The notes: a model not told the origin generated them from the sequence alone. A stretch of 64,000 nt of DNA from an uncultured Gammaproteobacteria bacterium (GCA_964344415.1 CAYFMS010000001.1:100214-164213), one strand, 5' to 3'. Positions 1 to 42,509 are shown, counted from the first letter of the stretch. Made by a program: numbers and translations.

Positions 1-404
1 TTCAGCACGTGAATCAAAGACTTGTGTCTGCTCACTGCAGGTCGCAAACCGACACATATGTACGCGTATGCTTTGAACTCGGCGGGCTCGATATCCTTGA
101 AATGAAGGATGGGTACAAACCCCACAGTGTACACACCGGAACACCTATGCCGCCCGGAAAGCCCATGGAGCCTGGTGGCATTCTATTCATTCTCACGCTC
201 TTGGTCATCAATGGAGGCATTCGCGTTCCAATGTCCATCAAGTGTGGAGGTGCTACCATTGACCTGGGCGATCACCAGGAACGAATGCCGCATATCAGCG
301 TCACCCCAGACCCTAGTTCTGAGGGCGGTATCATTCTCCTGAACTTGCATGATGTGAGTTCGGAAACGGAATATGCGGGGATGGCATCAGCTGCACTTAT
401 CTAG
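1..404 (+). CDS. 3' part of a hypothetical protein truncated by the window start; Gly-rich repeats faintly reminiscent of a GXGXG/beta-helix-like fold
   Basis: ORF runs from the window edge to TAG at 402-404 and is followed by a hairpin plus T-run. Local GC ~52%, clearly above the neighbouring genes. Confidence 0.3.
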   Translation, partial: QHVNQRLVSAHCRSQTDTYVRVCFELGGLDILEMKDGYKPHSVHTGTPMPPGKPMEPGGILFILTLLVINGGIRVPMSIKCGGATIDLGDHQERMPHISVTPDPSSEGGIILLNLHDVSSETEYAGMASAALI

Positions 405-1927: not shown

Positions 1928-3124
1928 ATGATAATCGCCTCTTCCATTATTGCTATTTTATTCGCCTATCTCAGCGTGAAGCATTATAAATGGTCGCTCA
2001 TCGTCCTTGCGGGGCTCCTTCCCCTCTACATGATCCGTTTCGATGTCGGCATCCCCTTTACCCTCCTTGAAATCCTTATTTTGATTACAATTGCTCGGTT
2101 TTTTACACTTCAACCGAAGTTGAAAAGCCTTCTTTGGAAAAACAAAGCTCTCCCTGGCATTATCATTCTTCTGATCGCGGCGACGATTGGAATTTTTGTA
2201 GCGCCTGACACATATTCAGCGCTTGGTATTTGGAATGCGTATTTCATCGAACCGATATTTCTCTTTTTGATCTACACATCGACGCTCAAAAAACAAGATT
2301 GGCCGCATGTATTTTCTGCCTTCATGATCAGCGCCCTTTTCGTAAGCCTATTTGGCATTTTTCAATGGGTATTTAATATTGGCATCCCCGTTCCATGGGA
2401 TATCGAGAGGAGAATCACCAGCATATTCCCCTACCCGAATGCTGTTGGATTGTATGTCGCCCCTATCATCGGCATTGCTGTCACATCTTTGATAACAAAA
2501 ATGCATAAACCAATTCTTCCAATTCTCACTGTCATTTTTGGTAGCATTGCCATCGTCCTTGCTGAAACCGAAGCTGCATTCGTCGCCATTCCGGCCGGAC
2601 TACTTATAGCATTTTTATTCAGCAAGGCTCGGGCCAAGATGAAATTGATCACAGCAGGGATTTCAGCACTCATCGGCTTACTTCTCTTTGCTTTCATTCC
2701 GATTGTCAAAACAAAATTGACATTACAGGACTATTCGGGACAGGTAAGATTGTCGCAATGGTCAGAAACGATGGAGATGCTGAAGACTCGACCTCTGTTT
2801 GGATCAGGTCTAAACGGATATCCCGAAGCACTTGCGCCATTTCATGATCCGTCACTGTATGAGATTTTTCAATATCCTCATAATCTTTTCCTGAATATTT
2901 GGACGGAATTAGGTTTACTTGGAATTCTTGGATTTTTTATCCTGACATTTGCTGCGCTGCGCTATTCATCAAGAGATCCACTTTCCATTGTGGTAATCGC
3001 TTCCCTTTCTATTATGCTTATTCATGGAATGGTTGATGTTCCTTATTTTAAAAATGATTTGGCAGTCATGACATGGGTTCTGCTTGCTGTCCTATTCATG
3101 CAAAGATCAAAAAAAATAATATGA
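1928..3124 (+). CDS. O-antigen ligase-like (Wzy_C/WaaL family) polytopic membrane protein
   Basis: Multi-TM protein immediately downstream of the flippase. Start placed at ATG 1928, which sits in frame inside the longer ORF 1883..3124. Confidence 0.45.
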   Translation: MIIASSIIAILFAYLSVKHYKWSLIVLAGLLPLYMIRFDVGIPFTLLEILILITIARFFTLQPKLKSLLWKNKALPGIIILLIAATIGIFVAPDTYSALGIWNAYFIEPIFLFLIYTSTLKKQDWPHVFSAFMISALFVSLFGIFQWVFNIGIPVPWDIERRITSIFPYPNAVGLYVAPIIGIAVTSLITKMHKPILPILTVIFGSIAIVLAETEAAFVAIPAGLLIAFLFSKARAKMKLITAGISALIGLLLFAFIPIVKTKLTLQDYSGQVRLSQWSETMEMLKTRPLFGSGLNGYPEALAPFHDPSLYEIFQYPHNLFLNIWTELGLLGILGFFILTFAALRYSSRDPLSIVVIASLSIMLIHGMVDVPYFKNDLAVMTWVLLAVLFMQRSKKII

Positions 3125-3648
3125 AAAAAGTCATTGTGGGTTCGAAAAATCCTGTAAAAATTGAAGCGGCGCGCACTGCATTTGAATTAATCTTTCCAGA
3201 AGATACATTTGAATGTATTGGCCATGGAGCTCCTTCTGGCGTAAGCGACCAGCCCATCGGCGATGAAGAGACGCTTCAAGGAGCTGAAAATCGAGCGGCC
3301 GCATGTAAAGAGGCTTTTCCTGAAGCAGACTTTTGGATTGGATTAGAGGGCGGAAATGAAGAAGTGAATGGTCATCATTTTGCCATGGCATGGATGGTGA
3401 CAATGCATGGTGATGGTATTGGACGCGGAAATGTTGGCGCATTTCCTCTTCCCCCAAAAGTGGTTGAGCTCGTTCAACAAGGCATGGAGCTTGGCCATGC
3501 CAATGATATTGTTTTCAAAAGTAAAGAATCAAAAAAAGGGATTGGGGCCAGCGGACTTTTGACCAATGAATTGATTACACGGTCAGATTACTATACCCGC
3601 GGTGTTATTTTTTCCCTCATTCCTTTTATTAATGGGGATTTATATTAG
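3121..3648 (+). CDS. non-canonical purine NTP phosphatase (inosine/xanthosine triphosphatase, YjjX family)
   Basis: MKKVIVGSKNPVKIEAARTAF...GLEGG matches the YjjX/Maf-Ham1-like family. Start taken at ATG 3121, overlapping the upstream gene stop by 4 nt. Confidence 0.6.
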   Translation: MKKVIVGSKNPVKIEAARTAFELIFPEDTFECIGHGAPSGVSDQPIGDEETLQGAENRAAACKEAFPEADFWIGLEGGNEEVNGHHFAMAWMVTMHGDGIGRGNVGAFPLPPKVVELVQQGMELGHANDIVFKSKESKKGIGASGLLTNELITRSDYYTRGVIFSLIPFINGDLY

Positions 3649-3830
3649 ATCGCGAAGTAAGTAGTTAGTAGAAAGTAGTCGACAAGTCGAGCGGTGAATT
3701 GGATAGTATGCGCGAAGGATATTGGATGAAATTTCCATGAAATACGAGCAGCGGAGCCGAGTGTACTGGAACGTACATGAGGCGAGCAGCGCAGTATTGA
3801 GTGAAAAGTTCGCCCCAATAGACAAGCGAC
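3649..3830. repeat. copy of the dispersed C-poor modular intergenic repeat family (modules gtaagtagttagtagaaa and gcgaaggatattggatgaa)
   Basis: The 18-mer gtaagtagttagtagaaa (3656-3673) is identical to 61565-61582. The 19-mer gcgaaggatattggatgaa (3725-3743) is identical to 16091-16109. The plus strand is strongly C-depleted. Confidence 0.6.
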
Positions 3831-3872
3831 AAAAAGAAAAGCGCCCAGCTCACCGTATGTGAGTCAGGGCGC
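3829..3872 (-). terminator. Rho-independent terminator of the 688-aa island gene
   Basis: gcgccc...gggcgc stem with an inner ctcac/gtgag pairing, followed on the minus strand by ttttctttttg. Confidence 0.55.
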
Positions 3873-3889
3873 CTAAGGCACACTTCGGG

Positions 3890-5956
3890 TTATTGGCCCA
3901 GAAGTCTTTTCGCACGCTCGATCGTTACCTCCGCGTGCTCTTCAACTTCTCCCTTATCTGCATGCTCTGCAGATTGACCGCTTTCCCCCTCAACGTATTG
4001 TTCTACGCTCGGCGAAAGGTTTGACCAGACCACAAGCATGGCCAGCAATGCTGCCACATAGCCAGCAACCTGCACATCCGTTCGCTTGAGCAGCTTTCCG
4101 GAATAGTGCAGCGCAATCGACGCCGCGATCAGCACAGGGATGTACCACCAATGAAGCCATGTTCCATCGAAGAAACGTTGCACCACTGGGAAGCCCATAA
4201 CAACATGGATGCCGAAGATGAAACCCCAGAAGATAGCATTCGCACCTGCGACCCCCAGGATATTCACTTGGACCTGTTCCATATTTTTGCGCTCAGCCTT
4301 GTCCTTGTACAGTGCTGTCCAGAACCAGCCGGTAAGTTCGGCAGGAATAAGGATTGCACTGACAAGTACGAAGAAGAGAGCCGTATTGCTGCTCCATGCA
4401 TTCAGCTGGAAGTACATCGTCGACACAATCCACAGCCCCACCCACACAACAGTGTTAATGATGCCGCGAATCTTGGAACCAGGTCGCCACCGATAAAGGG
4501 GCGACACAGGTCTATCGATCGGGAACTCGAATCCGCCCAGCTTGCTGAGCTTGCCGATCAGAGATCCCTGTGTCTCGTCCCTCTTTGCCTCGGGTGCTGG
4601 TCCGCCGAGTACATTGAACAGAGGAATGACGATGATTACGAATGGCAACATGGCAAGGTTTCCCATCAACCATAGCAGCAATCCGTATTCCCAACTTTCC
4701 GCGCTCCACTCGAGCAGTGTGCCGAGTGTGTACGGGGCGGCATAGGCAAGCGTCGATGTAATCAATGACGCTCCAAGCAGTCCCGTGACGATCTGCGACG
4801 CAGCTCGTACACCCGGACGCGTTGCACGCCAACGAATCAACATCCCAACACCGAAACCAATGAAGGAAACGATCGGGATGATGGTGCTCGCAGCAACGTA
4901 GAGGTTTGGATATGGCGTTGGGAGCACCGATGTCAGTGCTCCCGTCACCACGTTGACCAGCCCCTCCGCGGCCATACCACCAAGAATACCAACCGCAAAC
5001 GCGACGATACTCAAGGCAATCGCAGCTGCATCTTCGCCGCTGGCGTCGAACCAATCATGCCATCCTTCTCGATCTTCCGGATCGGACAGCGGATCGAGTC
5101 CATCGAAGACCCATGCATATATGCGAGAAGAAATGCCGTATTTCTTCGAACGCTGCCCTGTCGCTTCACATGCATCGACGAAATCGATGAGCCTTCTGTT
5201 GTACAGGCTCATTAAGCGCTGCTTAGAGTCGTCCATGACTCTCCGCTCTTGTGCAGACAGAATGTCCTCACCTTGGCGCTGACCTTCCTCTGCCGATCCC
5301 CGTCTTCTCTCTGCATGTCGATCGCGTAATCGTCGATTCACGCCCTCGATATTGTTGAGGTCACGATGCGCACGATTGACTTCGTCTGCTGTCAGCTCCG
5401 GAAGTCGAGCAATGACTTTCGAGTTCTCTTCCATGGCGGCGGCCACATGTTGCAATGCAGCACGGCATCCACGAATCGGCAGCAAGTCCTGGTCACGAGC
5501 CGACCGCAACATGCGGCGCAGCAAGGCGAGCTCTGTATCCCGATTTGGAAGATCAGGAAGCGGCGGGTCTGGCGGGCTCCTCTCAGCATCGTCAGCCGGA
5601 TCAGAGTCATGCGAGTCCCTCGCCCTTTTGAGGTCGCGTCGGAGCCTGGATGCCCATCGTTCGCGGTCACGCTCATTCGCTTTCACGCGCCAAGCGCGCG
5701 CCACATCTTCGCTGAGCACCTCGAATGCCGAGATGATCACCGGACGGGCCCAAACAGGCACGCGAGGATGACTCCCAATGGTCTCACCAATCAGCTTCAG
5801 GGCGAAGCGATTCATGAATGTGTCCATGACCAGTCCTAAGACTTGCGTGGTCATGTCCATCACCTGCCGCTCTGACAGATCTGCTTCACCAGACGGAAGT
5901 CCAGTGAAGACCTTGTCGGTCAACCAATTGATGACTGTTTCTTTCGTTGGGTTCAT
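3890..5956 (-). CDS. hypothetical polytopic membrane protein: ~300-aa charged/coiled N-terminal cytoplasmic domain plus ~10 C-terminal TM helices; no family recognised
   Basis: 688-aa ORF with SD GGAGG 6 nt upstream. GC ~58% with G/C-ending codons, unlike the host. The N-terminus is Arg/Asp/Glu-rich (RRDLKRARDSHDSDPADDAERSPPDPP). Confidence 0.7.
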   Translation of the reverse strand: MNPTKETVINWLTDKVFTGLPSGEADLSERQVMDMTTQVLGLVMDTFMNRFALKLIGETIGSHPRVPVWARPVIISAFEVLSEDVARAWRVKANERDRERWASRLRRDLKRARDSHDSDPADDAERSPPDPPLPDLPNRDTELALLRRMLRSARDQDLLPIRGCRAALQHVAAAMEENSKVIARLPELTADEVNRAHRDLNNIEGVNRRLRDRHAERRRGSAEEGQRQGEDILSAQERRVMDDSKQRLMSLYNRRLIDFVDACEATGQRSKKYGISSRIYAWVFDGLDPLSDPEDREGWHDWFDASGEDAAAIALSIVAFAVGILGGMAAEGLVNVVTGALTSVLPTPYPNLYVAASTIIPIVSFIGFGVGMLIRWRATRPGVRAASQIVTGLLGASLITSTLAYAAPYTLGTLLEWSAESWEYGLLLWLMGNLAMLPFVIIVIPLFNVLGGPAPEAKRDETQGSLIGKLSKLGGFEFPIDRPVSPLYRWRPGSKIRGIINTVVWVGLWIVSTMYFQLNAWSSNTALFFVLVSAILIPAELTGWFWTALYKDKAERKNMEQVQVNILGVAGANAIFWGFIFGIHVVMGFPVVQRFFDGTWLHWWYIPVLIAASIALHYSGKLLKRTDVQVAGYVAALLAMLVVWSNLSPSVEQYVEGESGQSAEHADKGEVEEHAEVTIERAKRLLGQ

Positions 5957-6078
5957 GAGAACCTCCTATGAAGTTTGAAGTTTTGAAATTGTGTAGGTTC
6001 GATACCGGATTTTAACGATTTTACGCCAAATCCAGGCCACTTTTTATACCATAAAATGGGCTTTTTGTCAATCCAACC

Positions 6079-6116
6079 AATATCGGATATAAACAGGCCT
6101 ATTTTTATCCGATATT
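6079..6116. promoter_or_regulatory. 11-bp perfect inverted repeat (aatatcggata ... tatccgatatt), operator-like, in the divergent island promoter region
   Basis: Arms at 6079-6089 and 6106-6116 are exact reverse complements, separated by 16 nt. Confidence 0.4.
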
Positions 6117-6182
6117 AATCATTGATTTTATATCGAATATTTGATTTCTGGCTGGTTTTAGCCAAAAAATCAACAAAAAATA

Positions 6183-6211
6183 TTGACAAAAAGCTTAAAA
6201 AATGCTATAAA
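6183..6211 (+). promoter_or_regulatory. sigma70-type promoter (TTGACA-17-TATAAA) for the 6292-7559 operon
   Basis: TTGACA at 6183-6188, a 17-nt spacer, then TATAAA at 6206-6211 preceded by TGC. GGAGGT SD sits 7 nt before ATG 6292. Confidence 0.55.
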
Positions 6212-6291
6212 TGTTAGCCTAAGTATGCCTCTGCATGCAAAGGATTTGTTCTTTATCACCTGATTAAACCCTTACAGATTGGAGGTGCCAT

Positions 6292-6870
6292 ATGGCACGC
6301 ATGATGTTTTTCTTGATGGTCATCCTGACGAGTGCCTGCGCCAAGCAGGCAACCGTCCAGCCGATGATCGTGGAGGTCGTCAATCCCTGCCCAACGGGGT
6401 ATGAGCTGATGACCAGTTCGCGTGAGACGCGAAGCACCAACTATCGTTTCGGTAGTTGGTCAAGTGTCGGCGGCAATGGCCGCGAAACCGTCACGCGTCG
6501 CTGCGTGAAAGTTGCTCCTGTGGTGCAAACAGCACCTCAGCCTCCCGTCTTCGTCACCGCCGTGCCGTCCCATGTGGCGGCATATGAGGTGAACGTAGAA
6601 GAGTTGCAGCAGACGCAGTGGGCAATCATGGAAGAAGAGGTCGCCGTACAAAAACGTGCGCTTGAGATTTCCAAGAGCCGACGTGATGAGATTGCGCTGG
6701 CACTCGCGACGGCGAAGGATGACCTGGCTGCGGCAAGACGCCTTGGAGCGGACATACTTCGTAAAGCACGACGCGTCGCGTACCTCGAGGCGCTTCTGTC
6801 AGAGATGGCGGATGTCACGAATTCCTTGATCGATCAGATCGAGGCTGATCAGAATGGAGGTGTGAATTGA
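6292..6870 (+). CDS. hypothetical secreted protein or lipoprotein with a C-terminal coiled-coil
   Basis: Signal peptide MARMMFFLMVILTSAC followed by Cys. C-terminal heptad-like region EELQQTQWAIMEEEVAVQKRALEISKSRRDEIALALATAKDDLAAARR. GC-rich. Confidence 0.6.
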   Translation: MARMMFFLMVILTSACAKQATVQPMIVEVVNPCPTGYELMTSSRETRSTNYRFGSWSSVGGNGRETVTRRCVKVAPVVQTAPQPPVFVTAVPSHVAAYEVNVEELQQTQWAIMEEEVAVQKRALEISKSRRDEIALALATAKDDLAAARRLGADILRKARRVAYLEALLSEMADVTNSLIDQIEADQNGGVN

Positions 6871-7559
6871 TCACACTTTTCATCCTGATCGCGGCAGCTC
6901 TCGCGCAAACCGCTGGCTGGGGGCCTGGACATGATCCGCTCAGTCCACTCTCCGGATCGCATCTGACAGATGCGACACAGGAGTGGCCGGTCAATTCCTG
7001 CGTCATCGCAGGGATGCCGGAGGGACGCGGAAAACTCGTGTCCATCACCAACAGTTCAGGATCGACAGCGATTCTGACGGCGGTGAAACGGTACGAGACT
7101 CGCGAAGAGGTGGCTGACAATGTCTACCCACTCGCGGTCATGCGTCCCGGGCAGGCCATGGTCAGCGCCGCAATTCAGTGGGAAGAAGATGGCAGTCGCC
7201 GTCGATATCCACTGAAAAGTGGTGAAACCTGTTACATGCGCCTTCCTGCAGGGCGGTGGGTCATCGAGATGTGGGAAATCCCAAATCTCGACAGCACCCC
7301 ACCACCTGAGCGCATCATTGCCCGAGGCCATGCGTACATTCCGAATGGCCAAGGGGGATTGAAGCGCGTAGCGCAGCACCTTTCCTTCGACCGTACCCGT
7401 TACGGTAAGGAAGTGCGCTGGCATCAGGAAACGATTCACATCTCATCCCCTGTGGACGAGGTATGGATCGAGGCGCAGGTCATCCGGCAAATGACCAATC
7501 CTCGAGAGAGGATTCGCACGCCAGGGTTCACAATCGACCCACATGACTGGCGCAGCTAG
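6867..7559 (+). CDS. hypothetical secreted protein
   Basis: ATGA overlap with the upstream gene indicates translational coupling. Signal peptide MITLFILIAAALAQTAGWG. GC-rich. A terminator follows. Confidence 0.6.
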   Translation: MITLFILIAAALAQTAGWGPGHDPLSPLSGSHLTDATQEWPVNSCVIAGMPEGRGKLVSITNSSGSTAILTAVKRYETREEVADNVYPLAVMRPGQAMVSAAIQWEEDGSRRRYPLKSGETCYMRLPAGRWVIEMWEIPNLDSTPPPERIIARGHAYIPNGQGGLKRVAQHLSFDRTRYGKEVRWHQETIHISSPVDEVWIEAQVIRQMTNPRERIRTPGFTIDPHDWRS

Positions 7560-7577
7560 TCAGGTGGTTCGATATAA

Positions 7578-7612
7578 CCGATGCTACTCATACGGAGCGG
7601 CATCGGTTTTTT
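7578..7612 (+). terminator. Rho-independent terminator
   Basis: ccgatgc ... gcatcgg 7-bp stem followed by T6. Confidence 0.65.
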
Positions 7613-7614
7613 GC

Positions 7615-7646
7615 AACCAAAAAACAGGCATATGGCCTGTTTTTTA
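7615..7646. terminator. bidirectional terminator hairpin
   Basis: caggc-atatg-gcctg stem flanked by A6 and T6 runs. It also serves the minus-strand pilin array. Confidence 0.55.
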
Positions 7647-7652
7647 TTTTAC

Positions 7653-8024
7653 CTATGATTGCAATCCTGCTTCTGACAATGCGTCGAAGACGAAGTTTGA
7701 AATCGCAAGCGCCGCAAGAATCAAGATAATACCGACAATACCATTGATGAGAAGCTTCTTTGCCTTTTCAACCTTTCCTTCATCTCCCCCAGCCGTCATC
7801 CACATAAATCCAGCATAAAGTGTCAAAATGAGGAAGATAATTCCAAGTACGGAAATAAGCACGGAAATAAGATTCCCAATCAGTGTTGTTAAATCCTGTT
7901 CAGGAAGTCCACTTGCTGCTGAAACGTCACCAAGACGATCCGTTGCAGATGTTTGAGCATGCACTTGAACCGCCACAGCGAGGCTTAGCGGCACAGAAGA
8001 AAGAAGAGCGAGAGCTTTTTTCAT
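7653..8024 (-). CDS. TrbC/VirB2-family pilin-like protein (paralog 1)
   Basis: Signal peptide, then TM1...MWMTAGGDEGKVEKAKKLLINGIVGIILILAALAISNF (TM2). Topology and the AGxMxxxxGG motif resemble RP4 TrbC/VirB2. Confidence 0.6.
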   Translation of the reverse strand: MKKALALLSSVPLSLAVAVQVHAQTSATDRLGDVSAASGLPEQDLTTLIGNLISVLISVLGIIFLILTLYAGFMWMTAGGDEGKVEKAKKLLINGIVGIILILAALAISNFVFDALSEAGLQS

Positions 8025-8038
8025 AAAAAGAGATTAAT

Positions 8039-8440
8039 TTATTGTGTTGCCGTTTCCTCTACAGGTGCAGAAGATGTGGCGCTTTCAATGCTTTGTGTCA
8101 CGAAATTCGCAATCACAAGCGAAGCTGATACAAGTATAATTCCGATGATCGAATTGCGCAACATTGCCTTCGCTTTTTTGACACGGTCTTCATTCCCGCC
8201 CGCTGAAAAATAGAACATTCCACCTACGATGAGATAGCCAAGAAGGACAAGGCCGAGAATGGATAGTAGGACTTGAAGAAGCCTGCCAAGCACTTCTGCA
8301 AAAACAGGTACTTGGTTTTCACTGCCATATACAGCGCTCCCTGCCCGATCCGTTACCGAAGTATAGCTGGGCTGAGCATAGGCAGCACCGGCCGGCAAGA
8401 AAAGAAATGAGATCCCGATGATTGCTAGCAATTTCTTCAT
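8039..8440 (-). CDS. TrbC/VirB2-family pilin-like protein (paralog 2)
   Basis: Same architecture: ...FYFSAGGNEDRVKKAKAMLRNSIIGIILVSASLVIANF. Confidence 0.6.
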   Translation of the reverse strand: MKKLLAIIGISFLFLPAGAAYAQPSYTSVTDRAGSAVYGSENQVPVFAEVLGRLLQVLLSILGLVLLGYLIVGGMFYFSAGGNEDRVKKAKAMLRNSIIGIILVSASLVIANFVTQSIESATSSAPVEETATQ

Positions 8441-8441
8441 A

Positions 8442-8837
8442 TTATGGTGTTGGTGGAGCGGTGGAACTCACCCCAGAAAGCGCTTCTAATAGTAAATTGG
8501 TTATCGCAAAGGCGGCAACAATGATAATCATTCCGACCGTTGCATGTATGAGCAGCTTCTTCGCCTTTGCAACAGAGTCGAGATTCCCCTGATCCGTCAT
8601 CCACATCACACCTGCATAGACCATTTGAACAAGATACACAATTCCGACAAGCCCAAGAAGTGGTCGAATAATGTACACCCCAAGAAAAGTACCTACATCG
8701 ATATTGCGCTGCCCACTCCCATAGGAAAGTTCTGCTGTTTCAAAAAGCCCTATTTCATTTACATCAAGTTGAGCAAAGACAATAACAGGAATAAAAAACA
8801 AACTAAGCATTATGATGGGTAAAATCCATTTCCGCAT
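8442..8837 (-). CDS. TrbC/VirB2-family pilin-like protein (paralog 3)
   Basis: Start taken at internal ATG 8837 (MRKWILPII signal peptide). Motif VMWMTDQGNLDSVAKAKKLLIHATVGMIIIVAAFAITNL. Confidence 0.55.
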   Translation of the reverse strand: MRKWILPIIMLSLFFIPVIVFAQLDVNEIGLFETAELSYGSGQRNIDVGTFLGVYIIRPLLGLVGIVYLVQMVYAGVMWMTDQGNLDSVAKAKKLLIHATVGMIIIVAAFAITNLLLEALSGVSSTAPPTP

Positions 8838-8875
8838 ATCGAAAGGGCCCTTGGCCCAATCGGCATACGACAATG

Positions 8876-9313
8876 TTATTGCGTTGCTGTGAGAATGGAC
8901 CGAATCACGAATTCTGTAATTGCCCAAGCGGTAAGAATAATGGCAAGGCCAACAAGTCCAGCAATGAGCATGCGCTTTGCCTCGGCAACCTTGTCGTCAT
9001 TTCCGCCAGCGGTCATCCACTTGAATCCACCCATGAGTGTTACCACGACAGCGATAATTCCAAGGAATCCAATCACGACACGAATGAGATTTCCTGCCGT
9101 CGATTCAAGATCAGCAGAACCAAGTCCTGTAGCACTTGTAAAGTCATCACTCAAAAGATCATCAGCTGTGAGCGGACCTGAGTCGCTTCCAGTTGTTGTT
9201 GGGACGGGATCACCAAGCTGCGCCGACGCAGGTGATACAAAGAAACTAAATGCACTGAGTGCAATGAGAAGGCTCATTGCGCCATAGAGAGAGTAACGTA
9301 GGAAACTCGTCAT
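8876..9313 (-). CDS. TrbC/VirB2-family pilin-like protein (paralog 4)
   Basis: FKWMTAGGNDDKVAEAKRMLIAGLVGLAIILTAWAITEF. Confidence 0.6.
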   Translation of the reverse strand: MTSFLRYSLYGAMSLLIALSAFSFFVSPASAQLGDPVPTTTGSDSGPLTADDLLSDDFTSATGLGSADLESTAGNLIRVVIGFLGIIAVVVTLMGGFKWMTAGGNDDKVAEAKRMLIAGLVGLAIILTAWAITEFVIRSILTATQ

Positions 9314-9331
9314 AGAAAAAGAATTAAGAAA

Positions 9332-10012
9332 CTAATTAGCGGGACCTGCTTCTCCGCCGACAAGAGGATTACCTGTTGTGACGGCAGTGAAGAGCGTATT
9401 GGTAGCAACGAATGCTGCTGCGATAATGATTATACCAAGCATTGCAAAAATGAGTACTTTCTTTGCTTTTGAAATCTGTGCATCATTTCCGCCAGCTGTT
9501 AGAAACATGAGTCCACCGAAAATGAACATGATAAGAGCAATGGCGCCCGTGAGGCCAAGAATACCCTGAATGATGCGCCCAAGGATTTCGCGGGGGTCGG
9601 ATGTTCCAAGAGGATTCACAAGTCCAACGGGAGCTGCAGAAATCGACCCTACTGTTCCTGATCCAGACGTGGGCGCGGACTGGACAACCGGAGCCGACGT
9701 CGTTGCTCCACATGAACTTGGATCATTTATACATGCTGCTTCGCAATCATCCGCCTCAACATCGACACATCCCTGCACGAGATTGGAACAAGCAAAGTAA
9801 TCTGTCTGAGGATCTAAGCCATCACAAATCTGCCCTGCGCCATAGACACTTGCATCTCCCGCATCCCCACAAACAGCTTCAGCTTGATTTTCACAATAGC
9901 CCGTGAAGTCTTGAGCGGAAACGATTAATGGAATGAGCATGGAAATAGCCATGAATAAAAGTGATAAAAATGACCATTTTATTGTAAAAAATCTTTGCAT
10001 CATATTATTCAT
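9332..10012 (-). CDS. TrbC/VirB2-family pilin-like protein (paralog 5) with a Cys-rich N-terminal insertion
   Basis: LMFLTAGGNDAQISKAKKVLIFAMLGIIIIAAAFVATN. The insertion carries about 11 Cys (CENQAEAVCGDAG...CEAACINDPSSCG). Confidence 0.55.
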   Translation of the reverse strand: MNNMMQRFFTIKWSFLSLLFMAISMLIPLIVSAQDFTGYCENQAEAVCGDAGDASVYGAGQICDGLDPQTDYFACSNLVQGCVDVEADDCEAACINDPSSCGATTSAPVVQSAPTSGSGTVGSISAAPVGLVNPLGTSDPREILGRIIQGILGLTGAIALIMFIFGGLMFLTAGGNDAQISKAKKVLIFAMLGIIIIAAAFVATNTLFTAVTTGNPLVGGEAGPAN

Positions 10013-10574
10013 TTTGTGTATTTATTAAACTTCCCGCCGTGTCACCTCCAGTTGCGCGATCAATCGTTTCCTCGATGGTAGAATCTCCGCTTGGCAAGCT
10101 TCCTGTCGGTGATGTCAAAACACTAATGACAATATTCACAATGGCATAGGCGGACAATACAATCACAAGTCCAATGAATGCATCGCGCAGCGTATGAAGT
10201 CCTTTTTGAATTTTCGTTTGATTCCCTCCACTTGTGATCCAAGTTAGTCCACCAATGATAAAAACAAGCAAGAGAATACCTCCTGTTATTCCAAAGAGGA
10301 ATGTTTGAATGTTCACAGCAATTTGAAAGAGATCCTGAATGCTACATTTTCCCTTTTCATCACATTCCGTTGAGAGATTATAACGAATGAGTCCGCTTCT
10401 AATGAGCTGTGTAAAACGTGGTACCGTTACTGACTGTTCAATTTGATTCCCTGCGAGACCCGTTGTTGGTGGTGCTGTGACATCGGTTTGCGCATGGGCA
10501 TTTAAAGCGAAAAACAACAGCGAGCATAGTATGCTGACTAAAAAAATACGATATGTATAACGTATAAAACTCAT
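10005..10574 (-). CDS. TrbC/VirB2-family pilin-like protein (paralog 6, divergent)
   Basis: LTWITSGGNQTKIQKGLHTLRDAFIGLVIVLSAYAIVNI; signal peptide MSFIRYTYRIFLVSILCSLLFFALNAHA. Confidence 0.5.
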   Translation of the reverse strand: MSFIRYTYRIFLVSILCSLLFFALNAHAQTDVTAPPTTGLAGNQIEQSVTVPRFTQLIRSGLIRYNLSTECDEKGKCSIQDLFQIAVNIQTFLFGITGGILLLVFIIGGLTWITSGGNQTKIQKGLHTLRDAFIGLVIVLSAYAIVNIVISVLTSPTGSLPSGDSTIEETIDRATGGDTAGSLINTQNE

Positions 10575-11167: not shown

Positions 11168-12547
11168 CTAATATGTCTGACTGATTTTTCTTTCCGCCAA
11201 ATCCAGCGCATCCTCCGGATCCTCTACGTCAAGATAGGCATCAATGAGTTCAAGAATGGCCGCTTCGGCGCGATCCCAGTCCTCGCCCATATACCAACCA
11301 TCTGCCAACAGCACTTGCTCGGCAAATACACCAAGAACTTCATCGTCGAGCTGGGACCCGATAAGTTTTGGATGCGCCGTTGGCTTTTCAGCCTTTGCAA
11401 GGAAGCTCGCCACCTGCTCTTCGCTTGTAGCAAATAAGAGAAAATCCCATGCCCAATCACTGTAGCGACTATTCGACGCGACGACTTCAATCCAATAATT
11501 TGCGAAATGCACTTGTTTCGAACCGGCAATTTGCGGCAAATGCGTCACTTCGTAATTCAATCGAGGTGCCGATGTCCGAATAAGTGGATTGTGATATGCA
11601 TAGCCAAAGAAGAATGCTGTTTGACCGTTTGCGAAAGCTTCAAAAGAATTCGGGCTATCTTCCGTCCATGTATAAACCTCTTTCACTGGGTTAGCAAAAT
11701 CCGTATAGAATGAAAGTGCATCAAGTGCCGGAATATTCCGACCCGCCTCGGTATTAATGGTATTCGTAAGGTCAACACGACCACGATCATCCACCATCTG
11801 AACACCCGCCTGCATCATAATGACAGACAAAAGGTCCGCCGCTCGCTCTACATTGTATGCCGTACCAAGGGCAGCTCCTGACTGATCTACCTCGCCCGTC
11901 GAGTCAAAGCTCGTTAATTCGACAACTTGATTCTGAAAATCTGTCCATGTTTCCGGCGGCGTTGGGATGCCGGCCGCTCCAAGCAAATCTTTATTGTAAT
12001 AAAGCGCAAGCGTATCGAGAGAAAGCGGAAGTCCGGCAACAACATCTACCGTCCCCTCCTGTGTTTGCACTGGAATGACAACATCATCGATGACCTGATC
12101 AACATATCGATCACCGAGCTGACGCATATTAAGTGTCGGTTTGGTTTGATTCACAAATACAACCTCTCTGCGAAGGGTGCCACGTACTTGCTGCTCAGAA
12201 ACGGTGACCTGTGATGGCATTGGGTCAATGAGATTTGCAAATTCACCTATCTTTGTATTCTGAATTGTGAAGATGTCCGGGCCTCGATCCTCCGCAAGGG
12301 CGCGAATCAATTCTTCTTCATATTCTTCAAAAAGCAACTTTCTGTATTCGATCTGAACATTCGGGTGACGCGCTTCATAGGCCGCAATAATATCGCGAAA
12401 GTCATCTTCACCCTCGAAAACTCGCCAATAACGTAAGACAATTTGCTCATCTGCCGGACTTGCATTTCCACCACCAAAACACCCAGCCCCTATCAAAACA
12501 AGCGACAGAGCTATGATGGACAATTTAAAAAAGGATTTTATTTGCAT
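11168..12547 (-). CDS. extracellular solute-binding lipoprotein (ABC transporter SBP, family-1-like); orphan, with no adjacent permease
   Basis: Signal peptide with LIGAGC lipobox; 459 aa; overall SBP_bac_1-like composition. Confidence 0.5.
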   Translation of the reverse strand: MQIKSFFKLSIIALSLVLIGAGCFGGGNASPADEQIVLRYWRVFEGEDDFRDIIAAYEARHPNVQIEYRKLLFEEYEEELIRALAEDRGPDIFTIQNTKIGEFANLIDPMPSQVTVSEQQVRGTLRREVVFVNQTKPTLNMRQLGDRYVDQVIDDVVIPVQTQEGTVDVVAGLPLSLDTLALYYNKDLLGAAGIPTPPETWTDFQNQVVELTSFDSTGEVDQSGAALGTAYNVERAADLLSVIMMQAGVQMVDDRGRVDLTNTINTEAGRNIPALDALSFYTDFANPVKEVYTWTEDSPNSFEAFANGQTAFFFGYAYHNPLIRTSAPRLNYEVTHLPQIAGSKQVHFANYWIEVVASNSRYSDWAWDFLLFATSEEQVASFLAKAEKPTAHPKLIGSQLDDEVLGVFAEQVLLADGWYMGEDWDRAEAAILELIDAYLDVEDPEDALDLAERKISQTY

Positions 12548-13413
12548 ACTCCGTCTCGAATATATTTGCGCAGTCCATTCCTTACCTCTGGATGCTTAAG
12601 GCCAAGTTCAATTTGCGCAATAATGAATTGCAATTTATTTCCGCAGTCATAGCGTGTGCCATCTAGTGTGCGACCATATGCCACCTTCCCCGATTTTAGA
12701 TGCGTAATAAAAGCGTCAGCCAATCGTATTTCCCCGCCCTTCCCTGGTTTTTGCGTCTTTAAAATATTCAAAATATCTGGCGTGATGACATATCGACCAA
12801 TAACCGCCTGATTGGAAGGGGCCTGCTTTATGCTTGGTTTTTCAACAAATTGATCTATTTGCCAAACCTTTTGATTCACACGTACGCCGCCAATAACGCC
12901 GTAGCGTGTTACATCCTTTCTCGGAACCTCTTCAACGGCAATAACAGGATCGCCAAATTTTTCATATACATCGATGAGCTGTTTGATTCCTGATTTACGT
13001 GGGTTATAAATAATGTCGTCACCAAAAAGAACAGCAACCGGCTCATCTGGATCGATAAATGGCATGGCAGATAAGAGCGCATGTCCATCACCAAGTGGCT
13101 TTGGCTGGCGAACAAAAGCAAATTTCGCGAGCTTTCCAATTTTCTTTACACCCTCGAGCGCTTCTTTTTTCTTTTTCTGCTCAAGCCGATATTCGAGCTC
13201 AAAATTTCTATCAAAATGATCTTCAATGGCACGTTTACCAAGTGCGGTAATAAAAATAATTTCTTCAATACCAGCCGCAACAGCCTCTTCAACGACATAT
13301 TGAATCACTGGCTTGTCGACAACGGCTAGCATTTCTTTGGGCTGTGCTTTTGTTGCAGGGAGGAATCGCGTTCCCATGCCTCCAACGGGGATAATCGCTT
13401 TTCGAACTTTCAT
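12538..13413 (-). CDS. galU: UTP--glucose-1-phosphate uridylyltransferase
   Basis: KAIIPVGGMGTRFLPATKAQPKEMLAVVDKPVIQYVVEEA is the canonical GalU N-terminus. Confidence 0.85.
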   Translation of the reverse strand: MKVRKAIIPVGGMGTRFLPATKAQPKEMLAVVDKPVIQYVVEEAVAAGIEEIIFITALGKRAIEDHFDRNFELEYRLEQKKKKEALEGVKKIGKLAKFAFVRQPKPLGDGHALLSAMPFIDPDEPVAVLFGDDIIYNPRKSGIKQLIDVYEKFGDPVIAVEEVPRKDVTRYGVIGGVRVNQKVWQIDQFVEKPSIKQAPSNQAVIGRYVITPDILNILKTQKPGKGGEIRLADAFITHLKSGKVAYGRTLDGTRYDCGNKLQFIIAQIELGLKHPEVRNGLRKYIRDGVCK

Positions 13414-21018: not shown

Positions 21019-21585
21019 CTAAAGCCCGAGTTCTTTTGGCGACGTATCAAGCATGGCCGCTATGCATGCGCGGTTGAACATGATCCAGCCATGGCACCAT
21101 CTCCTATACCACCTTACCTTCTTGCCCTGCATTCTGGCTCTGAGCGCAGGGCAGCCGGGGCCATAATTGTGAATCATCACCATTGTTCCCAGAAAGAGAA
21201 TGTCTTCAAATCCTCCATCATCCCGTGGGATCAACCAATCGTCTGGAATAAGGTCCGTATTCTGCAGGATGGCTTGAAGTGCATTGAAGCCAAGCACTCT
21301 CTCCGCATGCCCTTCCCTCACTTCCTTCACGAATCTTGAGAAACCAATCTCCCTGCCCGTTTCTTCATCCGGCGGCTGCGTATGCAAATGGACACGGCGT
21401 AGATCGAGTTCAAATGGCTGATGTTCGGCATGATGCAGCACTTCCCAGCCAACCACCCTTTCAGGCAGAAGCGGGGGGCCGGGGTCAACGCGAATGAACT
21501 GCCTTTCAAACCCTTCTTTCGCCCGCCCAGCAAGAACATCGTCGAGCGTTCGCCTTGAAGGGACAATCCAATTATCATTCTTCAT
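21019..21585 (-). CDS. hypothetical protein (GC-rich, ~52%)
   Basis: 188 aa from ATG 21585 with GGAGG 5 nt upstream. Composition is atypical for the host. Confidence 0.45.
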   Translation of the reverse strand: MKNDNWIVPSRRTLDDVLAGRAKEGFERQFIRVDPGPPLLPERVVGWEVLHHAEHQPFELDLRRVHLHTQPPDEETGREIGFSRFVKEVREGHAERVLGFNALQAILQNTDLIPDDWLIPRDDGGFEDILFLGTMVMIHNYGPGCPALRARMQGKKVRWYRRWCHGWIMFNRACIAAMLDTSPKELGL

Positions 21586-21649
21586 TTTTCCTCCAGCAAA
21601 GCATGGTTTGTGCAATGTAAAAGAATAAAAGAGCCCGGTCAAGGCTCTT

Positions 21650-40160: not shown

Positions 40161-41075
40161 ATGGCGCAAAATCAGTTAGGGAAACTTATAAAACAATTTC
40201 TGGAATACCTCGAAATCGAACGTGGCCGCAGTATGCGTACGGTCAGAAATTATCACTTTTATTTAAATAGATTCGCTGAATTTGCCGGACATCCGCACCC
40301 GTCAAAGATTTCGCAGGACATCGTTCGGAAATTTCGTTTATTTTTGAATAGGGATTTAGAAGGTCGTGACGATGTAAATTTAAAAAAGTCTACGCAGAAT
40401 TATCATTTGATCGCACTTCGTTCATTTTTAAAATATTTGCAAAAAATTGATATCAAAACACTTGCGCCCGAAAAAATAGAGCTTGCAAAGCATGGGACGA
40501 GGCAGGTTGAGGTTCTTGATGAGGATGAACTCGATCGTTTACGGGAAGCTCCACTTGAATCGGGTGGGATCATCGGTAAAAGAGATAAGGCAATAATTGA
40601 AATGCTCTTTTCGACAGGTTTGCGTGTTTCTGAGCTTGCGAATTTAAAAATCGATGACGTCAACCTAAAAAAAGATGAATTTACCGTTCGGGGTAAAGGG
40701 TCGAAGCATAGAGTTGTTTTTCTTTCTGATCAGGCGAAAAAATCGGTCAAAGAGTACCTTGAAGCGCGAAAGGATATGTCACCACATTTATTTGTGAGCC
40801 ATGATCGAGCAAAAAAGCATCGCGAACCCCTTCCCCTTTCAGCGCGCAGCGTTCAGCGTGTTATTGAAAGAGCTGCGTCTATTGCAGGAATTACAAAGAA
40901 AGTGACGCCGCATGTGCTGCGACATACATTCGCAACGGATTTACTGCATAATGGAGCTGATATTCGAAGCGTGCAGTCTATGCTTGGCCATGAATCGATT
41001 ACGACGACACAGGTGTATACGCATGTAACCGATAAACAGCTGCATGAAATTCATAAAAAGTTTCATGATAGGTAG
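40161..41075 (+). CDS. xerC: tyrosine recombinase XerC/XerD family
   Basis: C-terminal HVLRHTFATDLLHNGADIRSVQSMLGHESITTTQVYTHV with the RHRY catalytic residues. Confidence 0.8.
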   Translation: MAQNQLGKLIKQFLEYLEIERGRSMRTVRNYHFYLNRFAEFAGHPHPSKISQDIVRKFRLFLNRDLEGRDDVNLKKSTQNYHLIALRSFLKYLQKIDIKTLAPEKIELAKHGTRQVEVLDEDELDRLREAPLESGGIIGKRDKAIIEMLFSTGLRVSELANLKIDDVNLKKDEFTVRGKGSKHRVVFLSDQAKKSVKEYLEARKDMSPHLFVSHDRAKKHREPLPLSARSVQRVIERAASIAGITKKVTPHVLRHTFATDLLHNGADIRSVQSMLGHESITTTQVYTHVTDKQLHEIHKKFHDR

Positions 41076-41174
41076 GCTGATCATCAGATCATCTTCGATA
41101 TTTCCGACTTCTGAAGCGATCAACTCATAAGTCGGTTATATAAAATACCCCAGTCTTCAGACTGAGGCATTTTA

Positions 41175-41250
41175 TGGGGCGGCTAACGGGAATCGAACCC
41201 GTAATAGAGGTACCACAAACCCCTGTGATAACCGTTTCACCATAGCCGCC
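41175..41250 (-). tRNA. tRNA-His (GTG) with encoded G-1 and CCA
   Basis: Hand-folded: G-1 pairs with discriminator C; acceptor GCGGCTA/TAGCCGC; anticodon loop TTGTGGT; T-arm CGGGTTCGATTCCCG. Confidence 0.85.
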
Positions 41251-41251
41251 A

Positions 41252-41328
41252 TGGTACGCCCGGTAGGACTCGAACCCACAACCTAATGGTTAGAACCCAT
41301 CCGCTCTGTCCAGTTGAGCTACGGGCGC
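41252..41328 (-). tRNA. tRNA-Arg (TCT)
   Basis: Hand-folded: acceptor GCGCCCG/CGGGCGT (G1-U72 wobble), anticodon loop GTTCTAA, T-arm GTGGG-TTCGAGT-CCTAC, CCA encoded. Only 1 nt separates it from tRNA-His. Confidence 0.75.
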
Positions 41329-41477
41329 GTACTATTGGGTCTAATTGTAGCGCGATAGTAGCGCATTTTTTGTTTATTTGCAAGGTGTGATCCCAGCTAT
41401 GCATAAACACTTGACGTTTTTGGTATTTTCTGGCACTATACGCCGCGTTGTCTTGAAATATATGGATTCGTTCATGT

Positions 41478-42509
41478 ATGGAAAGGCATATCGTACCCTT
41501 TGAAGGCATTGTGCCGGAAAAGGTTTCACACTCGAGGCCTAGCGGCCTCATGGAGACATACAATATGTTTACTTCTTCGCTCATCCCCTCGTTCACGATG
41601 GATGTCAATTCGGGTAACTTCAAGGTGATCAGTGACGCTCTGCCGCAGATCGTTCCGCAGCCCGGCGCTTTGCGTCGGATCGCGTTCGACATCGACAAGG
41701 GCCGGCTCTCCCTCACCGAGCTCGAGGCTCCGAAGGCGGATGGGATGCTCGACGTGATCAACGTCGTCGAACTCGGCATCACCGACGATCAGAAGCGGGT
41801 CTTCATCGTGACGACGCAGACCGGCAACCTGATTCAGGGCGACAAGTTCGTCGACAATGCCGCCAAGCTGTCGCTGCAGAAGCTCGCGACCGGTTGCGCG
41901 GCGATGATGGATGGTGCCGACCTGAACATCGGCATCAACGTGAACACCGAAGCGATGAAGCTGATCGGTCGTCAGAGCGGAACGCGCCTCGACGCCATCG
42001 GCAACAACTGGTCGAGCTTCATGCTGACCGTCGACCTCGGCACCGGACAGATCGTCGACTTCGAGAACATGGGACACATGTCGGTGATGAAGGACTTCGT
42101 GACCGACGACTTCACCATCCTCGACGGGCTGCGCTTCCAGAAGGTGACGAACGACGAGATCCTCGCCGCCATCGACAATGGCCGCGACCTCATCGACCTG
42201 TTCGATGAGAACCGGTTCGTGAAGATCAACGACGATGTGCCGCACATGCTCATGCGCGGCATCGACGGCAAGGTCCTGACCACCGACGGTCTCGGAACCA
42301 CGGTGTTCAAGTGGGACGATGCGTCCGGCGACTTCCAGACCGGGAATGTCGACGGAATCCTGCACTCGGCGCTCGACGTCGACGGCATGATCGACAACAA
42401 CAGGTTCGTGAAGATCGAGGGCAGCCCCTACGACAACACGCTGCAGTCGATCCCGCTCGGCTTCGACGAACTGCCGGTCGACGCGAAGAACCAGTTCTCG
42501 CAGGCCTAG
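41478..42509 (+). CDS. hypothetical protein, GC-rich orphan (~58% GC) with internal repeats
   Basis: 343-aa ORF with repeated DENRFVKINDDV / DNNRFVKIEGS / DGILHSALDVDGMID motifs. No signal peptide. Many overlapping spurious ORFs on both strands are typical of high GC. Confidence 0.55.
   Translation: MERHIVPFEGIVPEKVSHSRPSGLMETYNMFTSSLIPSFTMDVNSGNFKVISDALPQIVPQPGALRRIAFDIDKGRLSLTELEAPKADGMLDVINVVELGITDDQKRVFIVTTQTGNLIQGDKFVDNAAKLSLQKLATGCAAMMDGADLNIGINVNTEAMKLIGRQSGTRLDAIGNNWSSFMLTVDLGTGQIVDFENMGHMSVMKDFVTDDFTILDGLRFQKVTNDEILAAIDNGRDLIDLFDENRFVKINDDVPHMLMRGIDGKVLTTDGLGTTVFKWDDASGDFQTGNVDGILHSALDVDGMIDNNRFVKIEGSPYDNTLQSIPLGFDELPVDAKNQFSQA

Follow-up and report, generated by a model that had tools for sequence, protein, structure and literature searches.

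Morons, a concept that arose from the genomics of lambdoid phages, are autonomous units of promoter, gene and terminator with an atypical composition. The exclusion and fitness factors that they encode are often membrane proteins, lipoproteins or secreted proteins. Among prophage exclusion proteins, SieA of P22 is a polytopic membrane protein, and Llp of T5 and Ltp of TP-J34 are lipoproteins. Here, we describe a block of three genes, A, B and C, that resembles morons and other acquired islets in several respects. The block lies at 3829-7646 of a 64,000-nucleotide window, the whole stretch of DNA that was analysed. Its composition is atypical (GC 0.538 vs 0.440 in the remaining window), it has its own promoters and intrinsic terminators, and its genes are orphans whose products are predicted to be a membrane protein, a lipoprotein-like protein and a secreted protein (Table 1). 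However, unlike morons and acquired islets, the block sits outside any recognisable prophage, lacks mobility genes and att repeats, and consists of two divergent units rather than one. We propose that it is a horizontally acquired cassette for envelope proteins, an overall explanation to which we assign a probability of roughly 55%. That the genes are foreign, real and located at the envelope we consider quite likely.

Table 1. Features of the three-gene block, with positions counted from the first nucleotide of the window.
Feature	Coordinates	Strand	Description
Gene A intrinsic terminator	3831..3873	-	hairpin 3841-3873, then U-tract UUUUCUUUUU (3831-3840)
Gene A	3890..5956	-	688 aa, 2,067-nt ORF, ATG start
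Promoter P_A	6043..6071	-	-35 TTGACA 6066-6071; 17-nt spacer; TGG-TATAAA extended -10, TATAAA 6043-6048; inferred leader ~80 nt
11-bp palindrome, three copies	6080..6140	.	ATATCGGATAT / TTATCCGATAT / ATATCGAATAT; starts 6080, 6105, 6130; 25-bp spacing
Promoter P_BC	6183..6211	+	-35 TTGACA 6183-6188; 17-nt spacer; TGC-TATAAA extended -10, TATAAA 6206-6211; inferred leader ~72 nt
Gene B	6292..6870	+	192 aa, ATG start
Gene C	6867..7559	+	230 aa, TTG start
B-C operon intrinsic terminator	7576..7614	+	hairpin 7576-7608, 10+3-bp stem, then U run
Bidirectional A6-stem-U6 terminator	7619..7651	.	hairpin 7619-7645

Composition sets the block apart from its surroundings. Measured over 3829-7646 or 3831-7614, it has the highest GC content of all 3.8-kb windows in the 64 kb (mean 0.446, sd 0.027), and GC steps abruptly at both edges. 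The first-pass annotation had placed the block at about 57-58% GC in a host of about 40%. The coding sequences measure 0.55-0.58, and the block as a whole reaches just 54% because its 335-bp divergent intergenic spacer is 33% GC; the host measures about 44%. GC3 of the three genes is 0.59-0.63 (0.591 for gene A) against 0.383 ± 0.037 in 25 host genes, a deviation of z = 5.6-6.7. The proteins are richer in Arg (8.1% vs 4.2% in the host) and poorer in Lys (2.8% vs 4.8%). GC, GC3, codon choice and the Arg/Lys ratio thus all bear out the earlier reading of the block as compositionally distinct and as a foreign module. Some codon choices are still host-like (CAT, AAT, GGA, GCA and ACA remain frequent), and these count against a foreign origin. 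The block is also GC-richer than its host, a further difference from known islets, and acquired DNA is more often AT-richer. Because no donor or homologue appeared in any collection searched, the label "foreign" draws entirely on composition and signals.

Could native genes have acquired this composition through selection for very high expression? In many bacteria, translational selection enriches C-ending codons of the kind seen here for Phe, Ile, Tyr, Asp and Asn (TTC 0.94 vs 0.40 in the host), and the strong promoters and SD sequences of the block would fit such an explanation. However, the increase extends to G-ending codons (CTG 0.35 vs 0.07, GAG 0.59 vs 0.34, AAG 0.58 vs 0.36), and GC1, GC2 and the Arg/Lys ratio shift together with GC3. 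Moreover, tig, pnp and dnaN, host genes that are usually expected to be well expressed, stay at GC3 0.30-0.43, and no homologue of A, B or C was found in other genomes, including those of CPR bacteria. We consider selection on native genes very improbable.

The abrupt GC changes, in a sequence that comes from a metagenome assembly, might instead mark a chimera or contaminating DNA of an organism with a higher GC content from the same metagenome. The assemblies speak against this. Four runs gave an identical assembly of the left junction and three gave one of the right junction (ERR2281800-803), by two pipelines and at 100% identity, and the block is therefore no chimera; it is present in all four runs and does not vary between samples. 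Furthermore, its edges coincide with terminators rather than arbitrary points, and its internal intergenic motif and promoter type recur elsewhere in the same genome. An artefact of this kind is therefore extremely unlikely. The window is chromosomal, since it encodes DnaA, DnaN, PBP1, Tig, PNPase and PolA, and the host is an ultra-small bacterium, probably of the CPR/Patescibacteria to judge by its 768-kb contig and the dnaA-dnaN pair in the window. Genes for Wzx, Wzy and an NTPase, and a cluster of pilin genes, flank the block. It is the largest compositional outlier, but not the sole one: no fewer than five further orphan cassettes, GC-rich and smaller, are found close by, and within the same 70 kb several are SD-led with the same promoter type.

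The sequence features support two self-contained transcription units that have their own promoters and terminators. An intrinsic terminator bounds the block on each side, as the first-pass annotation had stated. The one behind gene A (-23.9 kcal/mol, z -2.1) was missed by a consensus terminator scan because its stem is bulged. The right-hand terminator region folds more stably than expected (z -6.6) and contains two hairpins. A host pilin gene at 7653-8024(-) also ends at the second of these, the bidirectional terminator, which is therefore probably part of the host flank. The single consensus promoter proposed earlier proved to be two near-consensus promoters, P_A and P_BC, that are mirror copies of one another (an inverted repeat); the exact 12-mer TTGACAAAAAGC is common to both and absent elsewhere in the 64 kb.

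Between the -35 boxes of the two promoters sits an array of three palindromes, which we presume to be candidate binding sites for a trans-acting regulator. Three of the six matches to this motif in the window fall within the 61 bp of the array, when 1.64 would be expected in the whole 64 kb. Two of the same boxes, with the same 25-bp spacing, lie upstream of ruvB/HNH at L001 21256-21291. The recurrence of an intergenic motif elsewhere in the host genome is an observation that counts against a foreign reading.

Translation signals are a second foreign signature, because GGAGG precedes the start codon by 4-6 nt in all three genes of the block and precedes the first start codon in none of 40 host ORFs. 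The host genes around the block lack SD sequences and are largely leaderless, so these sites cannot be called host-type, as had been suggested. GGAGGT lies 5 nt upstream of the gene A ATG and GGAGGTG 5 nt upstream of that of gene B; upstream of gene C lies CAGAATGGAGGTG, which nearly repeats the 13-mer ahead of gene B. The translational coupling of B and C had been attributed to an ATGA overlap. The overlap exists, but it reads TTGA: within AATTGA, the TTG start of gene C at 6867 runs into the TGA stop of gene B at 6868-6870.

The three genes encode proteins with predicted envelope features. In gene A, 688 stop-free codons would arise by chance at the composition of the block with a probability of about 2e-13, and the called frames fit the GC1>GC3>GC2 pattern. 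Hydropathy and loop charges agree with the earlier description of protein A as a highly charged cytoplasmic N-terminal domain fused to a membrane region. The domain spans about 309 aa, is rich in Arg, Asp and Glu and is predicted to be all-helical and cytoplasmic. It is followed by eight clear transmembrane helices and one weaker one, fewer than the roughly ten claimed, and the loop charges follow the positive-inside rule. The earlier view that two exported proteins are encoded divergently from gene A also agrees with the sequence features, a lipobox in B and a signal-like N-terminus in C. By eye, the N-terminus of protein B, MARMMFFLMVILTSA followed by C, fits the lipoprotein pattern PROSITE PS00013 (K/R near the N-terminus, an uncharged h-region, [LIVMFWSTAG]2-[LIVMFYSTAGCQ]-[AGS]-C, Cys at about 15-35), with Cys16 at the end of M-A-R3-MMFFLMVI-L12-T13-S14-A15-C16. 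A Pro/Val/Thr-rich linker and a helix-prone C-terminal half rich in Ala, Glu, Arg and Leu follow; in a crude check of the coiled-coil once claimed for this protein, heptad periodicity was weak. Protein C begins with the hydrophobic signal-like segment MITLFILIAAALA followed by QT, and its remainder is predicted, with low confidence, to be beta-rich. The AF2 models of A (single sequence; all helix, pLDDT 42) and C (pLDDT 39) were unusable.

All three proteins are orphans, in keeping with the first description of them as lacking a recognisable family. None has a Pfam or NCBIfam match at E<=1, a match to the PADLOC-DB defence HMMs at E<=1, a hit in PHROGs at a meaningful E-value, or a match in the PDB or in phage and plasmid collections. 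When the domains of protein A were searched separately, no Pfam or NCBIfam family appeared at E<=10, and the transmembrane domain alone retrieved only noise. Among 5.8 billion protein clusters, each protein retrieved itself only. For B and C these cluster searches used a word-indexed method; for A, an exhaustive phmmer search of 1.84 billion representatives also returned nothing else. The window holds no paralogue of any of the three. Searches for synteny and for presence in related strains recovered no relatives, and no close relative of the host emerged either, the best identity for flanking genes being 52% in genome contigs and 57% in metagenome contigs.

What might such a trio do? Superinfection exclusion offers an architectural parallel: a membrane protein, a lipoprotein or both that act at the envelope, and whose genes lie on acquired DNA and carry their own signals for expression, would describe the block as predicted. 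The block differs in that it shows no PHROGs similarity at a meaningful E-value, has no prophage context and is known from its sequence alone. Neither PADLOC nor PHROGs links the proteins to phage exclusion, and an exclusion or surface-barrier role for the trio is doubtful. The suggestion that the genes form a defence system was not upheld, since no PADLOC or PHROGs match supports defence and nothing ties the three genes together as a system.

Spanins of the Rz/Rz1 type are a second point of comparison. Protein B shares with them an N-terminal membrane or lipid anchor and a helix-rich extracytoplasmic part, as predicted, and its sole family match is to phrog_456 (Rz-like spanin). However, this match is weak (E 0.037) and limited to the signal peptide, residues 3-37. 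No holin, endolysin or partner spanin was found with Pfam or PHROGs. CPR cells are not known to possess an outer membrane, and without one a spanin would be pointless.

The position of the block raises another explanation, that the trio is an accessory of the adjoining T4SS-type pilin cluster, in which A would serve as a VirB6-like channel or platform and B and C would assist assembly outside the cell. The block abuts six tandem pilin genes (7653-10574), five with a clear match to PF18895 (T4SS_pilin) and the sixth with a weak one, and its predicted products are a large polytopic membrane protein and two exported proteins. However, A has no TrbL or VirB6 match (Pfam/NCBIfam at E<=1 for the whole protein, E<=10 for its domains), and the pilin genes differ from the block in composition, SD usage and promoter type. 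Moreover, both the dedicated and the bidirectional terminator stand between the block and the pilin genes, and the window carries no further copy of A, B or C. We regard a pilin accessory as improbable.

What is left of a prophage, plasmid or integrative element, inert or in decay, such as a lysis or exclusion cassette that is intact but useless to its host, would also have orphan genes of atypical composition. The weak phrog_456 match of B, over its signal peptide, would fit such an origin, and the other small orphan cassettes nearby suggest repeated influx of mobile DNA. Set against this are the intact reading frames of all three genes, including the long one of gene A, with perfect SD sequences, near-consensus promoters and terminators. 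In addition, the genome measures just 768 kb or so, and we would expect useless DNA to be lost quickly from it. No integrase, transposase or phage family adjoins the block, which also counts against our own reading of it as acquired, as does the lack of flanking direct repeats. A useless remnant is thus unlikely.

We therefore favor a horizontally acquired cassette that now sits in an ultra-small bacterium's chromosome. Its first unit would produce A, a polytopic membrane protein with most of its bulk in the cytoplasm, and its second would produce the lipid-anchored B and the secreted, beta-rich C, with translation coupled via the TTGA overlap. Both units would start at mirror-image near-consensus sigma-70 promoters (ATTGACAAAAAGC...TGnTATAAA), from which the genes may be expressed. 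Since the promoters flank three palindromic boxes, a single DNA-binding protein encoded in trans probably controls all three genes together, and the two units may thus be co-regulated. Translation would depend on strong GGAGG sites on 70-80-nt leaders, unlike that of the SD-less, mostly leaderless host genes. The products may associate, physically or functionally, and act jointly at the envelope in an accessory function that came from a mobile element or phage. Our guess is that a surface or entry barrier resembling superinfection exclusion, or another surface modification, is likelier than a housekeeping role.

A bolder version of the acquired-cassette reading is tentative, and we think it rather unlikely. 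A, B and C may be the founders of three new protein families that together make up an envelope system not seen before. Its host, an ultra-small CPR bacterium, would have gained it from an unsampled gene pool, for example SD-using CPR phages or plasmids, and a common array of palindromic operators would tie it into a regulon of the host to which ruvB also belongs. If this is true, the other, smaller cassettes that are GC-rich and SD-led and share the promoter type would have come as additional cargo from that pool.

We consider it probable (approximately 0.75) that A, B, and C, the three genes of the GC-rich island, are foreign and real and that their products are located in the cell envelope. 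The first-pass annotation had described the island as a GC-rich block in a host of ~40% GC. The block is indeed distinct, although the host figure was too low: GC content is 53.8% over positions 3829-7646 and 44.0% in the remaining window. No other 3.8-kb window reaches a higher value (mean 44.6%, sd 2.7). The codon comparison that had been suggested bears out this contrast. The three genes have a GC content of 55-58% and GC3 values of 0.59-0.63, compared with 0.383 ± 0.037 (maximum 0.434) for 25 host genes in the window (z = 5.6-6.7). The compositional shift is general and extends beyond any single codon class. C-ending codons are commoner in the island (e.g., TTC 0.94 vs 0.40), as are G-ending codons (CTG 0.35 vs 0.07, GAG 0.59 vs 0.34), GC1 and GC2 are raised as well, and in the encoded proteins Arg is up twofold while Lys is nearly halved. 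The shifts in G-ending codons and in amino acids argue against the genes being native and highly expressed, as do tig and pnp, whose GC3 is ordinary, and we regard that explanation as very unlikely.

Terminators lie at both ends of the block, as originally described. The terminator of gene A has a folding energy of -23.9 kcal/mol (z -2.1), and the terminator region after gene C has a folding z of -6.6. These positions therefore delimit a foreign block of approximately 3831-7614. The called frames are consistent with a GC1>GC3>GC2 pattern, and the probability of 688 stop-free codons at island composition is ~2e-13. Thus, A, B, and C are real genes, or were so until very recently. That the island is now an inert remnant of a mobile element seems unlikely to us.

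Coordinates of the island, its flanks, other GC-rich orphan ORFs, and example host genes (window positions; L001 denotes coordinates of a longer stretch of the same genome that reaches left beyond window position 1)
Feature	Position	Strand	Details
Four ORFs of 64-74 aa	L001 18210-19310 (window about -3350 to -2250)		GC 0.52-0.55
Host gene example	L001 19895-20158	-	no SD, or close TGnTATAAT
Host gene example	L001 20166-21257	-	no SD, or close TGnTATAAT
250-aa ORF	<1-404		spans window start; GC 0.51
NTPase_I-T (YjjX-like) gene	3073-3648	+	island flank
Gene A terminator	3841-3873 (hairpin)	-	14-bp bulged GC-rich hairpin, then UUUUCUUUUU
Gene A	3890-5956	-	688 aa
Gene B	6292-6870	+	192 aa
Gene C	6867-7559	+	230 aa
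Hairpin and U run after gene C	7576-7608	+	
Bidirectional terminator	7619-7645		A6-stem-U6; also ends the oppositely oriented host pilin gene (7653-8024)
Six tandem small pilin genes	7653-10574	-	5/6 match PF18895 T4SS_pilin, sixth weakly (E 2e-4)
Host gene example	10005-10574	-	no SD, or close TGnTATAAT
Host gene example	12538-13413	-	no SD, or close TGnTATAAT
188-207-aa ORF	21019-21642	-	SD-led; GC 0.52, GC3 0.54-0.55
Host gene example	22350-25286	+	no SD, or close TGnTATAAT
Xer-like tyrosine recombinase	40161-41075		adjoins 343-aa ORF islet
tRNA-His/tRNA-Arg	41175-41328		adjoin 343-aa ORF islet
343-aa acidic ORF	41478-42509	+	GC 0.59, GC3 0.86; then terminator-like hairpin
82-aa ORF	45550-45798	-	SD-led; GC3 0.57; promoter TTGACAAAGAAGCAAATTTAATGTATCTT at 45857
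Host gene example	58067-60430	+	no SD, or close TGnTATAAT
56-aa ORF	61975-62145	-	SD-led; one TM segment; mini-cassette 61975-62222, local GC patch ~0.54

The island proteins and their flanks were recovered on separately assembled contigs from runs ERR2281800 to ERR2281803, which belong to one ENA project and were assembled with two pipelines. Contigs from every run cross the left junction, and those from three runs also cross the right one; all bases are identical to the window. These four independent assemblies make it extremely improbable that the island is an assembly chimera. The window lies on a contig of 768,188 bp, whose identity as chromosome follows from the presence of dnaA, dnaN, a class A PBP gene, tig, pnp, and polA in the window. 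Our literature search found no paper that mentions PRJEB17505 or the run accessions.

On its right side, the island adjoins the six pilin genes, which have a common motif, MxMTAGG...AKK. On its left side, the closest relatives of the flanking NTPase are mostly from Bacteroidota (~50% identity) and include one CPR MAG; the best relative is from a Candidatus Magasanikbacteria MAG (52% identity). The NTPase gene may itself have been acquired laterally. We consider the host to be probably a CPR/Patescibacteria bacterium because its genome is small, it carries the tandem PF18895 genes, and the best NTPase relative comes from the Magasanikbacteria MAG. The presence or absence of the island in related strains had been proposed as a check, and scans of genome_contigs and metagenome_contigs with the flanking genes turned up no close relative of the host; the unannotated ORF layout of the nearest relative, the Magasanikbacteria MAG, looked non-syntenic. 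Between the NTPase stop codon and the gene A terminator lies a 180-bp ORF-free spacer (3649-3830, GC 0.47) containing short repeats, CGAGCAGCGGAG and CGAGCAGCGCAG, 38 bp apart. Rfam gave no match for the spacer, and neither it nor the divergent intergenic region between A and B held a convincing small hidden gene.

Do the island proteins have relatives elsewhere? A, B, and C had no matches in Pfam or NCBIfam at E<=1. Pfam searches with four separate domains (E<=10), searches of PHROGs and PADLOC, and PDB sequence searches with each of the three proteins and with the N-terminal domain of A were negative or gave noise. Across these five collections nothing fell below E ~0.03, and the few weak matches were confined to signal peptides or low-complexity helices. 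In a word-indexed search of 5.8 billion clusters, representing ~15 billion proteins, each protein matched only itself, and the same held for protein A when 1.84 billion representatives were searched exhaustively with phmmer. IMG/VR scans with all three returned only self or nothing. Matches to GenBank phages and PLSDB plasmids were found neither by 'distant' blastn with the island nor by tblastn with the proteins, and the window holds no paralogues. The earlier statement that the proteins belong to no recognisable family therefore stands across family, cluster, and phage and plasmid collections, and by these searches A, B, and C appear to be singleton families. The orphan status of B and C is less secure than that of A because B and C were compared with the clusters by the word-indexed method alone.

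Protein architecture points to the envelope. As the first-pass annotation proposed, protein A joins a charged N-terminal domain to transmembrane helices, but we count eight clear helices and one weaker helix rather than ~10. The N-terminal domain (~309 aa) is rich in Arg, Asp, and Glu (50 K+R, 56 D+E) and is predicted, with low confidence, to be all-helical. Loop charges obey the positive-inside rule if the N-terminus is placed inside: loops on the outer face are short (27, 18, and 10 aa) and contain zero K/R, and those on the inner face contain 4, 8, and 4 K+R. Most of protein A would therefore face the cytoplasm or lie in the membrane. We found no internal duplication or repeat in A. The N-terminus of protein B, MARMMFFLMVILTSAC, which we take to fit the PROSITE lipoprotein pattern, is followed by a Pro/Val/Thr-rich linker and then by a C-terminal half prone to helix formation. 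The coiled coil previously assigned to B found no support in a crude heptad test. Protein C begins with a hydrophobic, signal-like segment that has no basic n-region, and the rest is predicted, with low confidence, to be beta-rich. The fold search suggested earlier produced only noise. The AF2 single-sequence models of A and C (pLDDT 42 and 39) were too poor for fold comparison, and Foldseek searches of the PDB with these poor models gave TM<=0.14 (query-normalised) for A and TM<=0.26 for C, with zero matches at E<=0.001.

The divergent intergenic region (5957-6291) is 335 bp long and only 33% GC. The promoter signals previously reported are present there, not as a single consensus promoter but as two mirror-image promoters, P_A (-) before gene A and P_BC (+) before B and C. 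Each carries the exact 12-mer TTGACAAAAAGC (6060-6071 on the - strand and 6183-6194 on the + strand, with no third copy in 64 kb), followed after 17 nt by TGn-TATAAA. The stretch between the -35 boxes contains an 11-bp palindrome, ATATCGGATAT, in three copies that start at 6080, 6105, and 6130 and are thus spaced by exactly 25 bp; with one mismatch permitted, 1.64 copies are expected per 64 kb, compared with three within these 61 bp. The palindromes are putative operator or activator sites through which a trans-acting protein would control A and B-C jointly. A pair of these boxes, again spaced by 25 bp, occurs 15 kb away, outside the window and ~5.3 kb left of window position 1, in the ruvB/HNH-endonuclease divergent intergenic region (ATATCCGATATAAAA-AGGGTG-TTTTATATCGGATAT, L001 21256-21291). 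Because the pair recurs there, the box is a motif of this genome, and it may mark a regulon or a repeated extragenic palindrome.

Translation signals also set the island apart. GGAGG(T) precedes the start by 4-6 nt in all three genes, the upstream regions of B and C have a 13-mer in common (CAGAnTGGAGGTG), and the leaders are 70-80 nt long with strong SD sites. Genes B and C meet at AATTGA, in which TTG (at 6867) is the start codon of C, rather than at the ATGA overlap first reported. The SD sequences had been called host-type, which our survey contradicts: among the 43 window ORFs of at least 150 aa, GGAGG occurs before the first candidate start only in the three island genes and in 0/40 host ORFs. 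In several host genes, a TGnTATAAT box lies only 6-11 nt ahead of the ATG, implying mRNAs that are leaderless or nearly so. Host genes thus seem to be essentially without SD, with mostly leaderless or short-leader mRNAs. Set against this host mode, the long leaders and strong SD sites are a second, independent foreign signature. The leaders fold no better than shuffled sequences, and Rfam searches in and around the island, at the gathering threshold and at E<=1, returned nothing credible. The trio could be an accessory of the adjacent pilin cluster, but the family searches and the expression signals speak against such a role, and we think it quite unlikely.

The island is not the only compositional outlier in the same 70 kb; the others that we counted there likewise have no Pfam matches. 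Region 40161-42650, with a recombinase and tRNA genes next to a GC-rich ORF, is a second GC-rich orphan islet with a classic genomic-island layout. The four short ORFs left of the window have GGAGG/GAGGG-type SD sequences in three cases and AAGGA only in the fourth, and their intergenic regions contain two hairpins resembling terminators, as well as promoter-like sites of the TTGACA/TTGGCA types; neither these ORFs nor the 250-aa ORF matched Pfam or PHROGs. In the mini-cassette 61975-62222(-), the promoter (ATTGACAAAATCCTTGTTTTATGCTATAAA) is followed by AGGAGGGG and then by the 56-aa ORF. This promoter, ATTGACAAAATCC...TTTTATGCTATAAA, is much like P_A and P_BC, with which it can be aligned over ATTGACAAAA and ATGnTATAAA, and a promoter of like type, TTGACAAAAG...TGCTATCTT, lies upstream of the L001 mini-genes. 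Such a -35 box is absent from ordinary host genes. The shared promoter, SD, and composition therefore suggest a recurrent cassette type in this genome, in which a strong -35/-10 promoter is followed by a leader, an SD, a GC-richer orphan CDS, and a terminator. The island is not an isolated case but the largest member of this class.

What might the island do? Our reading is that it is most likely a horizontally acquired, self-contained cassette encoding a polytopic membrane protein, a lipid-anchored protein, and a secreted protein, with A and B-C probably co-regulated through their common promoter/operator architecture. From architecture and origin, one can tentatively suggest an accessory role in the envelope that derives from a mobile element, for example an entry/exclusion barrier or a surface modification, although we hold this to be doubtful. 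It is similarly doubtful that the three proteins form a new envelope system that came from a mobile gene pool of CPR bacteria not yet sampled and that is tied into a regulon containing ruvB. The anatomy of the island resembles that of a 'moron'-type unit; however, one defining feature of such units is lacking because we found no prophage, integrase, or att repeats at the island. Orphan genes are common in CPR genomes, and compositionally atypical orphan islets are a known phenomenon of which the island is a new example. It is mildly unusual in that it has no relative among ~15 billion proteins, is GC-richer than its host, and contrasts with the host's initiation mode. At present, the island is well documented as an orphan islet but is no demonstrated system, and its practical value is limited until a homologue, a dependable structure, or data on expression become available. 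The SD and leader contrast could offer a simple means of recognising acquired genes in genomes of this kind. If the island is functional, a genome of ~768 kb devotes 0.5% of its length to three proteins known from no other sequenced organism, which would indicate a gene pool outside the searched collections, for example in mobile elements or viruses of CPR bacteria.
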